Positions 57,918-62,573 of a DNA stretch of 64,000 bases are shown in pieces. The position numbers and the translations under genes were made by a program. The first letter of the stretch is position 1. The number at the start of each line of letters is the position of its first letter. The DNA is from Dictyostelium discoideum (lineage: Eukaryota), in NCBI GenBank assembly GCA_000004695.1, contig CM000150.2, positions 2,240,001 to 2,304,000 of the forward strand, written 5' to 3'. The notes under the pieces were generated by a model that was not told the DNA's origin, did not search any database, and was given only the letters and a program-made list of their open reading frames with translations.

Positions 57918-60900
57918 TTAATCCTTATCAAACTTTGATTTCAAAGCCTCAAAAGAAGGATTTGATTTACATTTTGAAATTGGATATTTAGTATTACTTG
58001 TATTATTGTTGCTATTTTTATTATTATTAATACTGTTGGTATAATTAATAGCAATACCATTATTATTATTATTATTAATGCTGTTATTACTATTATTATT
58101 ATTATTATTATTATTATTATTATTATTATTATTATTATTATTATTATTATTATTATTATTATTATTATTATTATTATTATTATTATTATTATTATCTGTA
58201 GGTGTTGATGAAGAGATCTTTTCATTAATCATTGAAGCATAAAAAGAAGGAGCTAATGGGGGTGGTGGTAAACTAAATCCGCCAACACTATTACTGACAC
58301 TATTACTGACACTACGGTGTTGTTCTGATAATGAACTACCACTTGATAAAAATGAATCATCCCTATTATTGCTACTTTCAATTCCACTTGATAAATCAGC
58401 TGATGATGATGGTGATGATACTGATGAAAAAGTATTTCTTGAAGCATTACTATTATTTTTCATACTATTATTATTATTATTATTATTAGCACTGTTATTA
58501 TTGTTATTATTATCAGTGATTGATATTGGTACTGCTTTATTTCTAAATGCTGATAATCTTTTTGATTTTAAATTTGGATTTGGTTTATCAGGTACAATTC
58601 TTTCCCATTTAACTTGATGAGGTTGTTGATGATCATGAGTGGGTCTATTGTTATTATTTGATATTGGACTGGTTGAAGTTGAACCCATTGGACTAGTTGA
58701 GCCGACTGGACTTTGAGGAGCAGATAAAGTTGAAGGTGAAGATGAAGTTGAACTTGATCTAATATCATAGTCTGAATTGGTTGGGTTATCATCTTTTGAA
58801 ACTTCAACTAAATTCTTTAATTCCTCAGTTGGATGCATTGACATATCGATATTAATTTTATTTTCATTTAAGGAGACAGCAGTTGATGACTCATTATTAT
58901 TTGAACCACTAACTGTATCGATATCAATGTTTGATTCATGTTCATCAGAATTACCACCACTACCAACACCAACAACTCCTACACCACCAATACCAACGCT
59001 GCTACCACCTGTAAGTATTTGATAGATACCTTGATCTTGCATTTTCAATCTAAGATTTTCTAAATAAGTAATAATTTGTTGAAAAGATGGACGATCATCA
59101 GGGTTTGAAGTCCAACACATTGTAATGAGATCTCTAAACTCTGGTAAACAACTATCGGGTATTGGTGGTCTGAATGAGTCTTCCAATACCATTGAAATCC
59201 ATTGAATTTGAGCGAAATCTTTGTATGGTATTTGACGACTTATACATTCCCATAATACAAAAGCAAAACTATATACATCGGCTTGTTGAGAATAATCGGT
59301 TAAACCTTTCAACACTTCAACGGCCATATAACATGGTGTACCAACAGTTTTTGTCATACGATTATCGACAACTCTAGAGAGTCCAAAATCAGATATTCTA
59401 ATATTCCAATCTTGATCTATCAATAGGTTACCAGGTTTTAAATCTCTATGAATGATACCTAGTGAATGAAGATAATTCATACCTTTAGCTACTTGTAATG
59501 CTAAATGAACGATACGAGCATTTGATAGTGGACATATGTTGGCAGTAATGACACTATATAATGAACCACGTGAATAATAGTCACAAACCAAATACATTTT
59601 ACCAGGTTGAGCCGAACCACCAACACAATGAACGATATTATCATGACGAAGAACCGACATGATAGTTGCTTCACTATGAAATTCTCTTTCACTAAAACCC
59701 AACTCTTCCTCATTGAATTGTTTGACGGCGATTTCATAACCTTTCCATTTACCACGTTTGACAACACCACTAACACCACGACCAATCTCTTTGGTTAATT
59801 CTAAATCCGATTGAGAGATATACTTTAAAACACTGATTTCACCTTGTCTAACGAATTCTATTAAATATTGTAAAAATAATTTACCACCACCATTGACTAT
59901 TCTTTGTTTGTATTTATCGTGTCTAATTAGATGTGATAATATGTAAGAGATTGATTTTGATAGTGATGAAGTTGAATCACGATGAAGTAATTCTATGAAC
60001 TTATCGATATCATCTACACCCATATTCTCTACACATGTTGGATCATATTTACAAAGGTTTGCCAATGTATTAACTATAAAAGGTGTTTCAACTGATAAAC
60101 TATCAAATAATGATGAAACCAAATAGGGTATTATACCACTTTGAATTAGATGTTTCTTACATTGATCATTTGGTGAATTTGATATGATCATAAATGATCT
60201 AAATGCTTCTGATCTAACAGAACATTCATGACATATTATAAACTGTTTCAATAGGTTCAAGCCATTGCCACGACTAAAATGATCATGTATTTTCAATGAT
60301 GTAGTTGATACCAACATATTTGAAATGGTTAATGATAAGAAAAATACATAATCAGTTTCCTCTTTGAAAATTTGATTAAATTCATATCCATACTGTTTCA
60401 GATTAATCTCATTATTATTTGAAATTATATAATTAATAGTATTTGATTCCCATTGACAAAACATTGGTATTCCAAAATAACCACTCTTATCATGTGTTGG
60501 CGTTATCAAATCCAATATACCATTACTAATTAAAAATGTACACAATGATTCATTAACACAAAAATTTGAAAATGATTTAAAAATTAATACTTTTTTTGAA
60601 ATCTCTTGAAATTCTTTACAATATTCTAATAAATTTGATAATAATTTAATATTTGATTCTTTTTTTAAATCAACTTTAATAAATGATAAAATAAATAAAA
60701 AAAGTTAATTAAAAATTACTACTAATTAAAATTATTTATCATGATTTAAATAAACTTACAACTTGATGAAAGATTTGAAATAGTTTTTAATGTACAATTT
60801 ACAGTTATATTATCTTGAATTGATAATAAATAAATTAAAGTTTCTTTAATTGAATCAGAAATTAAATATTCATTCAATTCAAAACTAATTTCTGATACTC

Positions 60901-62573
60901 TTGATAAAAAGATTGCACATGATCTTGGACAATCTATAAAATCTGATCTTGCAATTAATGATATTACATCTATACCAACCTCTTTAAAAAATCGATTTAA
61001 AAATGGTTTATAACACGATAAAATACATAAACTACTTGCAACTAATTTTCTTAATTCCATAAAATTACTCCAATTATCTAATGAAACTAATTTAAATATA
61101 AAATCCATTCCAAATTCTTTTAAAACTCTTTCTTTATTTTTATCTAAATATAAAAAATAAAAAAAATTAATATTATTATTTTAATAAATTAATTAATTAA
61201 CTAATTTACTAATTATTATTATTATTATTATTATTATTATTATTATTATTATTATTATTATTATTATTATTATTATTATTATTATTATTATTATTTACCT
61301 TTTTCAATTAATTTTGCAAATATACCAATAATATGTATTTGAATTGTTGGATCAGGATAAAACATTAAATTCATTAAACCTTCAATACCAAATGAAAATA
61401 ATTTATCAATTGTTGAAGGTTTATTTGACATTAAAGTAATTAATTGAACAACCTCTTCAATCCATTCATTTGAGAATGCTAATTCCTTTAGATTTGGATT
61501 TAATTCGTCAATGATTGTACAATGAAATGGTGAACCACAAATTGGTGTATCATCAATTTTTATACTTATTGAATATTCGCCATAGATTATTGGTTGAAGT
61601 TTAAGTAATGAATAGTCGGATTTACGTTGTTCATAAGTAAAGGCCATTTTACGATCCTCCACTGATATCGAATCCTTTTTAATTACATCAATTTGAAAAT
61701 TTAATGATGTATTTACAATTAACATTCCCTTTGAATCAACTCTATATAATTTAATTTCATAAATGACACCTGATATACCTCTATATAATCCTTTACCAAC
61801 TGCAAAACATAATGCTGGACATTCTTCACCTTTCTTACTTGATAATACATGAATACGACCACCACCACTACCACTTAATATCTCATCCATATTACTCATA
61901 CTACTCATACTAAGATTTGTAAAATGTGGTAATTTCTCCATACTATTAGATTGAGTTTTCTTTGGTGGTACTAAAAATTCTGATGGTATCTCTTTCTCTA
62001 ATGCTACCATTTGTAATTCTGTTCCTTCATATATTTTATAATCTTTAACTAATCTATAACTTTGTAATAATTTTGAATATGCCTTGAAATTAAAAAAAAA
62101 AATAATAATAAAATAATTAGTATAAATACATATATAGGTTTGTTTAATTTATAAATCTATTGTTTTTAATAATAATAACAATAATAATAATAATAATAAT
62201 AATAATAATAATAATAATAATAATAATAATAATAATAATAATAATAATAATAATAATAATAATAATAATAATAATAATAATAATAATAATAATAATAATA
62301 ATAATAATAATAATAATAATAATAATAATAATAATATACTTTTGAAGTTTCTCTTGGGTTAATTTCATCAACCACTTTTAAATATAATTGTTGTCTTGCT
62401 GGTGGTATTTGAAAAAGATTGAATAAAAGTGTTTTAATCATCCATATTGATTGATTCGGATGAATTTCTAAAAACAGTTTATTATTACTATTATAATTTA
62501 TTAAAGTACCATTACTATTATTAGCACCATCTCCGCTTTGTTTCGCATTGTTTACATGAACCAACACTCTCAT
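57918..62573 (-). CDS. Multidomain protein (~1385 aa) with ubiquitin-like, filamin/ABP280 repeat, ARM-like repeats and a TKL-family protein kinase. Exons 62573..62340, 62082..61299, 61143..60760, 60673..57918.
   Basis: Kinase: GRGVSGVVKRGKWKG..AVK (Gly loop/VAIK), HRDLKPGNLL, SDFGLS, DVYSFAFVLWE. Filamin repeat: YEIKLYRVDSKG...YGEYSISIKIDDTPICGSPFHCTI. The N-terminal 78 aa are beta-grasp/UBL-like. Introns 1 and 2 are dominated by (ATT)n at 62167-62335 and 61212-61294. Splice sites GTATAT, GTAAAT and GTAAGT with AG acceptors give consistent phases (0, 1, 1), and the total of 4158 nt is divisible by 3. The track start at 60545 is TTG inside exon 4. The intron 3 acceptor (AAAG at 60675-60674) is the only AG compatible with phase 1 without creating a stop. 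Confidence 0.7.
61212..61294. repeat. (ATT)~27 microsatellite in intron 2 of the kinase gene.
   Basis: Seen directly. It ends 5 nt before the exon 2 donor. Confidence 0.85.
62167..62335. repeat. (AAT)~56 on the plus strand, which is (ATT)n in intron 1 of the kinase gene.
   Basis: Seen directly. The track reads it as poly-Ile or poly-Tyr, and that reading is rejected as coding. Confidence 0.9.

Follow-up and report, generated by a model that had tools for sequence, protein, structure and literature searches.

In the Dictyostelium kinome (Goldberg et al., 2006; PMC1420674), the ARMK family comprises TKL-group kinases with armadillo repeats, and its members DDB0230038 and DDB0230124 are listed as inactive and lack D166 (motifs HRSLHPKN, HRALKLNN, and DYG). 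Table S2 of the same survey lists a further kinase, DDB0229956, in group TKL and family TKL-Unique, with a kinase domain scored as active (IAVK, HRDLKPGN, DFG). We analyzed a window of 64,000 nucleotides (nt) of Dictyostelium discoideum DNA (assembly GCA_000004695.1, contig CM000150.2, positions 2,240,001 to 2,304,000 of the forward strand) that carries this gene on its minus strand at window positions 57918-62573. Like the ARMK kinases, its product combines a TKL kinase domain with predicted armadillo repeats; unlike them, it is listed as active and outside the family, keeps an intact HRD motif, and also has putative ubiquitin-like and filamin modules. Membership of ARMK was rejected, given the TKL-Unique entry in Table S2 and the intact HRD. 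We consider it very probable that the locus is a single four-exon gene, DDB0229956, encoding a ubiquitin-like domain, one filamin repeat, an armadillo solenoid, a TKL kinase domain, and a long tail, in this order, and that its introns contain lineage-specific, neutral repeats.

The four exons are joined in frame by three GT..AG introns to give 4158 nt, i.e., 1385 codons and a stop. The features of the gene are as follows, with amino acid (aa) numbering of the joined protein and repeat arrays called by Tandem Repeats Finder:

62340..62573, minus strand: exon 1, aa 1-78, with the ATG at 62573-62571, the first part of the predicted ubiquitin-like domain, and a low-complexity loop at aa 10-29
62083..62339, minus strand: intron 1, 257 nt, GTATAT..CAAG, phase 0, 4% G+C, with a TACTAAT branch-site-like motif in its 3' non-repeat part
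62167..62336, minus strand: intron 1 array, sense (ATT)n, 56.7 copies, 98% match, starting 4 nt past the first base of the 5' splice site
61299..62082, minus strand: exon 2, 784 nt, aa 79-339 and 1 nt, with the end of the predicted ubiquitin-like domain (to ~62002), a linker, the filamin repeat, and the first predicted armadillo repeats
~61513-61851, minus strand: single immunoglobulin (Ig)-like filamin repeat in exon 2, ~aa 156-268
61144..61298, minus strand: intron 2, 155 nt, GTAAAT..TTAG, phase 1, 3% G+C
61212..61295, minus strand: intron 2 array, sense (AAT)28, 28.0 copies, 100% match
60760..61143, minus strand: exon 3, 384 nt, predicted armadillo repeats
60674..60759, minus strand: intron 3, 86 nt, GTAAGT..AAAG, phase 1, 10% G+C, without a microsatellite; junction SSS/FDLKKESN as in orthologues
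57918..60673, minus strand: exon 4, 2756 nt including the stop, with the remainder of the predicted armadillo solenoid (to ~59826), the kinase domain, and the tail
59826..61509, minus strand: predicted armadillo region, aa 270 to ~750, about ten three-helix repeats, split by introns 2 and 3
59064..59804, minus strand: TKL protein kinase domain, aa 758-1004, motifs GRGVSG, IAVK, HRDLKPGN, DFG, and GTPCYMAVE
57918..59045, minus strand: C-terminal tail, aa 1011-1385, 25% Asn and 19% Ser
58001-58195, minus strand: AAT-type array in exon 4, encoding Asn runs

The joined protein agrees with the curated record. The Table S2 sequence for DDB0229956 begins MRVLVHVNNAKQSG and is identical to the joined protein over ~420 aa, a stretch that spans junctions 1/2 and 2/3. 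The kinase-domain alignment of the survey also has an entry under this identifier, with the sequence of the window's kinase; since the table and the alignment carry both parts under DDB0229956, the N-terminal exons and the kinase belong to one curated gene. There is no sequence difference between this gene and the one in the window, and the survey gives a classification only. Its domain legend includes filamin-repeat and ARM types and lists no ubiquitin-like type, and the ubiquitin-like assignment at the N-terminus is an addition to that classification. The curated D. discoideum gene set and the kinome have both included the gene since 2006, and it is functionally uncharacterized: literature searches for the gene and for a Dictyostelium TKL kinase with filamin and ubiquitin-like parts found nothing beyond the kinome paper and no reported function. 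A homologue search with the window protein returned no D. discoideum entry, and the gene was identified via the supplement of the kinome paper. An initial annotation made from the letters of the window alone (hereafter the sequence-only reading) had not recognized the domain combination from characterized Dictyostelium kinases; the novelty that this implied is not sustained, given the catalogue entry and the name 'filamin/ABP280 repeat-containing protein' that source records already attach to two orthologues.

We found seven full-length dictyostelid orthologues, from D. firmibasis (90% identity to the window protein), D. purpureum (72%), Polysphondylium violaceum (62%), a dictyostelid in EukProt (P0004; 55%), Tieghemostelium lacteum (54%), Cavenderia fasciculata (50%), and Acytostelium subglobosum (44%). 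Their alignments are unbroken at the junctions that they cover (ETSK/AYSK, IEK/DKNKER, and SSS/FDLKKESN), one sequence (P0007) being without the region that holds junctions 2/3 and 3/4, and every full-length orthologue starts with MRV, matching the ATG of exon 1. We also mapped intron positions from the annotated genes of four relatives, i.e., D. firmibasis, D. purpureum, T. lacteum, and C. fasciculata. Intron 1 is shared in position and phase (phase 0) by all four; introns 2 and 3 (both phase 1) occupy matching positions in D. firmibasis, D. purpureum, and C. fasciculata, and T. lacteum lacks both. This distribution indicates that the introns are old. The claim of four exons encoding a 1385-aa protein is thus borne out by in-frame GT..AG joins on which curated sequence and dictyostelid orthologues agree, and the splice model appears as secure as curation and comparative evidence can make it short of transcript reads.

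The kinase domain is the most readily recognized part of the protein. Pfam PK_Tyr_Ser-Thr matched aa 758-1004 with an E-value of 3e-59 and 200.8 bits (cut-off 23.1), and Pkinase matched with 190 bits (cut-off 31.7). The catalytic residues are complete in the translation, including the glycine loop GRGVSG, the lysine of IAVK, HRDLKPGN, and DFG, and the kinase is predicted to be catalytically active. Apart from one chain named as EGFR, the top-scoring solved catalytic domains were those of CTR1 (E-value 1e-47), ZAK, DLK, TAK1, B-Raf, and RIPK1, and the motifs HRDLKPGN and GTPCY are of Ser/Thr type according to the discussion in the kinome paper (PMC1420674). This supports assignment of the catalytic domain as a probable Raf/MLK-like Ser/Thr kinase of the TKL group; the Pfam match, the TKL kinases among the closest solved domains, and the published class all uphold the TKL assignment made from sequence. 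The best solved matches are Raf-like and MLK-type MAP3Ks (Arabidopsis CTR1, ZAK/MAP3K20, DLK/MAP3K12, TAK1, and B-Raf; E-values 1e-47 to 1e-35), with which the window kinase shares HRDLKPGN and GTPxY. However, it differs from them in having no leucine zipper, SAM, CRIB, or Ras-binding/C1 region, and its accessory domains are wholly different. Orthology with these kinases is not implied, and the kinome survey leaves the gene unclassified within TKL.

As had been read from the translation, the kinase domain is followed by a long, disordered tail rich in Ser and Asn. It includes a run of 34 Asn residues encoded by (AAT)n at ~58092-58193, and four short motifs within it are kept in several orthologues, namely NENxxxxDxSxHPTEELKNLV, KWE..PDKP..KRLSAFR, LPPPPL, and the C-terminal FEALKSKFD. 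The second of these is a basic site that resembles a target of AGC kinases.

The N-terminus was predicted by structure modeling to adopt a ubiquitin-like beta-grasp fold over aa 1 to ~105. The sequence-only reading had placed such a domain in the first 78 aa; the fold was retained by the model, and the extent was not, since the domain reaches into exon 2. Both Pfam models that point to this fold scored below threshold, i.e., ubiquitin (PF00240) with 15.2-15.9 bits against 25.4 and Ubiquitin_2 (PF14560) with 14.9 against 23.1. After the predicted fold the chain reads ...LEKEIPSEFLVPPKK and continues into the rest of the protein without a Gly-Gly; in the absence of the Gly-Gly, the ubiquitin-like part is an integral domain rather than a conjugatable modifier, and the latter was rejected. 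Compared with the ubiquitin-like domains of tubulin cofactors B and E (Pfam Ubiquitin_2), the window domain has 9-20% sequence identity, a disordered insert of ~20 residues between strands 1 and 2, and a longer second helix; no link to tubulin folding attaches to the window protein.

A low-complexity linker separates the ubiquitin-like domain from the filamin repeat. Filamin/ABP280 (PF00630) scored 17.8-19.9 bits in the D. discoideum protein against a gathering cut-off of 26.9, and it matched all eight family members (best E-value 3.8e-8), reaching up to 46 bits in distant relatives. When a profile of the region was searched against solved structures, all 13 hits were filamin-type repeats, from filamins A, B, and C, the Dictyostelium gelation factor, and the filamin domain of TRIM45. 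The single filamin/ABP280 repeat claimed for the protein is thus supported. As in filamin/ABP280 rods, including the gelation factor (ABP120), the repeat is Ig-like with a C-terminal GSPF signature; in contrast to these proteins, there is only one repeat, with neither an actin-binding domain nor a rod.

The remaining accessory region probably forms an armadillo solenoid of about ten repeats, at ~aa 270-750. In a structure model of the D. purpureum orthologue, a superhelix of three-helix repeats superposes on known armadillo domains, in support of the ARM-like helical repeats proposed from the translation. Profile evidence for this region was weaker: the Arm score (PF00514) of the D. discoideum protein was 14.4 bits (cut-off 20.6), with weak hits in five of the eight family members (best E-value 3.7e-4), and ARM_ARMC5 gave a best E-value of 6.7e-9, far under its cut-off of 79.9 bits.

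For the non-kinase part, a profile search across 1.84 billion cluster representatives gave a single full-length match, the dictyostelid orthologue from EukProt (P0004). Three more distant proteins contain filamin, armadillo, and TKL kinase parts in one open reading frame (ORF). Two are gene calls in environmental assemblies, one on the TARA Oceans scaffold TARA_SAMEA2621190_METAG-scaffold_231 (P0129; L004 1433-5001) and one traced as far as an ENA assembly contig (P0154), and the third is an MMETSP marine-eukaryote transcript (P0190). An ORF upstream on the TARA scaffold reads TIWMIKILIF, compared with SIWMIKTLLF in the conserved helix of the ubiquitin-like domain, a resemblance that is no more than suggestive of a ubiquitin-like domain in that ORF. 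The N-terminus of the MMETSP protein gave no significant match to a profile of the ubiquitin-like domain (probability 0.13%), and we do not claim the domain there. The core of filamin repeat, armadillo repeats, and TKL kinase thus occurs beyond Dictyostelia, despite the 'Unique' label of the kinome. Because marine protist sequences encode it in one ORF, this architecture is older than Dictyostelia.

Several points weigh against the gene structure and domain order given above. The splice junctions draw all their support from curation and comparison between species, and junction 3/4 was compared with orthologues only, the Table S2 sequence covering ~420 aa. An exact look-up of the 1385-aa protein in a protein collection gave no match. 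The Pfam scan of the joined D. discoideum protein placed the kinase domain above threshold, as expected from the sequence-only reading, with the filamin, Arm, and ubiquitin scores of this protein alone below their gathering thresholds. The model of the ubiquitin-like domain is of moderate confidence (mean predicted local distance difference test score of 59.8), and the armadillo model was built from the D. purpureum orthologue, not from the window's own protein. Finally, the roles of the accessory domains are ones that we infer.

With respect to these roles, the ubiquitin-like, filamin, and armadillo modules may be protein-binding surfaces that position or gate a MAP3K-like catalytic domain. 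A partner or substrate would dock chiefly in the armadillo groove, the filamin repeat would bind beta-strands or might dimerize as repeat 6 of the gelation factor does, and the ubiquitin-like domain would serve as a regulatory handle. Ras-binding and RA domains also have the ubiquitin fold, and the N-terminal beta-grasp could instead be a module of this type that binds small GTPases, making the protein a functional stand-in for Raf. This would fit a catalytic domain closest to Raf-like and MLK-type MAP3Ks, and the absence of RAF orthologues from Dictyostelium (PMC1420674); however, the sole sequence hints within the domain are to Pfam ubiquitin and Ubiquitin_2 (TBCB/TBCE type), and we regard a GTPase-binding role as very improbable. 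A different division of the locus was also weighed, in which the ubiquitin-like and filamin exons form a separate upstream gene and the kinase begins at an internal ATG in exon 4. An ORF of 875 aa does on its own extend from the last armadillo repeats through the kinase domain and tail. Nevertheless, the N-terminus and the kinase domain stand together in one curated model, these parts are also united in each of four independently annotated genes (D. firmibasis, D. purpureum, T. lacteum, and C. fasciculata), the predicted solenoid runs unbroken through exons 2, 3, and 4, and the distant relatives from marine protists have the filamin, armadillo, and kinase parts in a single ORF. We therefore rejected the division into two genes, which is close to refuted, and retain the single four-exon gene.

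The second part of the analysis concerned the introns. Introns 1 and 2 had been described as consisting almost entirely of (ATT) repeats. Their lengths and their long triplet arrays hold, but the arrays cover 170 of 257 nt (66%) in intron 1 and 84 of 155 nt (54%) in intron 2, and the motif was correct for intron 1 only, as the sense strand of intron 2 has (AAT)n. Each of the two introns retains a 5' splice-site hexamer and a 3' part outside the repeat, of 84 nt in intron 1 and 68 nt in intron 2. On the sense strand, the two arrays are reverse complements of each other. Arrays of this kind are common in the surroundings: about ten AAT/ATT-type arrays of at least 27 copies lie in the 64-kb window, with orientations divided 5:5. 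Simple repeats, mainly trinucleotide, make up 11% of the D. discoideum genome (review, PMC9234386). At least one further probable intron in the window (GTAAGT...TTTTAG; 36877-37030), from another minus-strand gene, contains an (ATT)27 array, at 36914-36995.

Comparison with the relatives shows that the intron positions are kept and the arrays are not. In D. purpureum, introns 1-3 are 85, 75, and 89 nt long without an array, and in T. lacteum the introns are 63-70 nt long with no AAT/ATT array. The introns of C. fasciculata (67-117 nt) contain short repeats of other motifs only, except for ~9 ATT copies in an intron that is absent from D. discoideum. In D. firmibasis, introns 1-3 are 103, 123, and 93 nt long; intron 1 is without a triplet array and intron 2 (L002 4107-4229) has ~23 copies of sense (ATT), the opposite motif to the (AAT)28 of D. 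discoideum. The (ATT)n array of intron 1 is therefore missing from intron 1 of all four other species examined, and the same intron 2 has acquired opposite-strand motifs in two close species. The 34-Asn run of the tail is likewise absent from D. firmibasis. Given that the D. firmibasis protein is 90% identical and that the repeats are absent or opposite there, the two intron arrays and the poly-Asn tract originated or turned over once D. firmibasis had split off. They look like recent expansions specific to the D. discoideum lineage, and neutral growth is the simplest reading. The intron arrays lie beyond the 5' splice site and short of the branch-point region, in an unconstrained part of the intron that tolerates insertion and is outside the coding sequence, and are most likely neutral. 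Slippage had been suggested as a possible influence on splicing efficiency; that the repeats are not conserved speaks against this.

In a search for strain variation in repeat length, the sole further D. discoideum contig recovered was a short-read assembly of 919 nt (L003; Logan, SRR28564543), which spans exon 2 and ends inside both arrays. It reads AAAA where the window reads AAAAA in a homopolymer of intron 1 (62160-62170), which reflects either variation between strains or a mistake in assembly.

Inverted repeats in flanking introns, e.g., Alu pairs, promote circularization of the enclosed exon in animals. In the window gene, likewise, the introns on either side of one exon carry sequences that are reverse complements, and the duplex predicted between them is very stable. 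It is conceivable that (AUU)56 of intron 1 pairs with (AAU)28 of intron 2 and loops out exon 2, giving a 784-nt circular RNA by back-splicing or else skipping of exon 2, so that repeat length would act as a polymorphic dial on the kinase mRNA; as 784 is not a multiple of three, skipping would shift the frame. Read in the sense direction, each array is the exact reverse complement of the other, and when the 1196 nt from intron 1 through exon 2 to intron 2 are folded, the minimum-energy structure contains 95 inter-intron pairs. The isolated duplex was predicted at -97.9 kcal/mol, compared with -6.4 and -9.0 for the introns folded singly, and like-for-like energies were just -7.4 in D. firmibasis and -16.7 in D. 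purpureum. Predicted pairing begins 3-4 nt inside each intron and overlaps both 5' splice sites. Moreover, the validated circular RNAs of D. discoideum include some that consist of exon 2 alone (PMC3946582), although the window gene is not among the three validated circles of that study. Several observations nevertheless favor a chance arrangement. It is not conserved even in D. firmibasis, despite 90% protein identity, and with orientations of 5:5 in the window, chance alone would put about half of all neighboring pairs of arrays in inverted orientation. Splicing of short introns is probably co-transcriptional, and intron 1 may be removed before intron 2, 784 nt downstream, is transcribed. 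In addition, other (AAU)n and (AUU)n tracts are numerous, the poly-Asn tract of exon 4 among them, and an all-A:U duplex would face competition from these. The window repeats also differ from those of the Alu-pair type in being simple A/T triplet arrays in very short introns, not kept in the sister species and with no known circle. We therefore consider a functional duplex very unlikely and favor neutral, lineage-specific arrays. If the duplex did form, plain microsatellites rather than transposon copies would serve as circularizing inverted repeats in a genome of very short introns, and repeat length would be a regulator that varies between strains.

Several features were recorded around the gene. 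A 269-aa ORF on the plus strand (window 56806-57615) converges on the kinase gene, with ~300 nt between the two stop codons, and the corresponding place in D. firmibasis holds a gene of similar size (276 aa; L002 7453-8283). A/T-rich intergenic DNA ~0.9 kb upstream of the kinase start codon contains a tandem duplication (window 63487-63679) with a 78-nt period, 2.4 copies, and 83% match. Rfam and tRNA scans detected no RNA genes inside the locus; elsewhere in the window they include a pair of tRNA-Asp (GTC) genes with identical Rfam scores, at 25531-25603 (minus strand) and 38096-38168 (plus strand), ~12.5 kb apart on opposite strands.

Beyond annotation, the significance of these findings is slight, given that the gene is known and intron microsatellites are routine in the D. 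discoideum genome, and they have no bearing on a long-standing question. Turnover of the arrays and the poly-Asn tract since the split from D. firmibasis provides a small, clean example of fast repeat change at fixed intron positions. Moreover, its unusual set of binding modules makes this kinase a reasonable candidate for knock-out.

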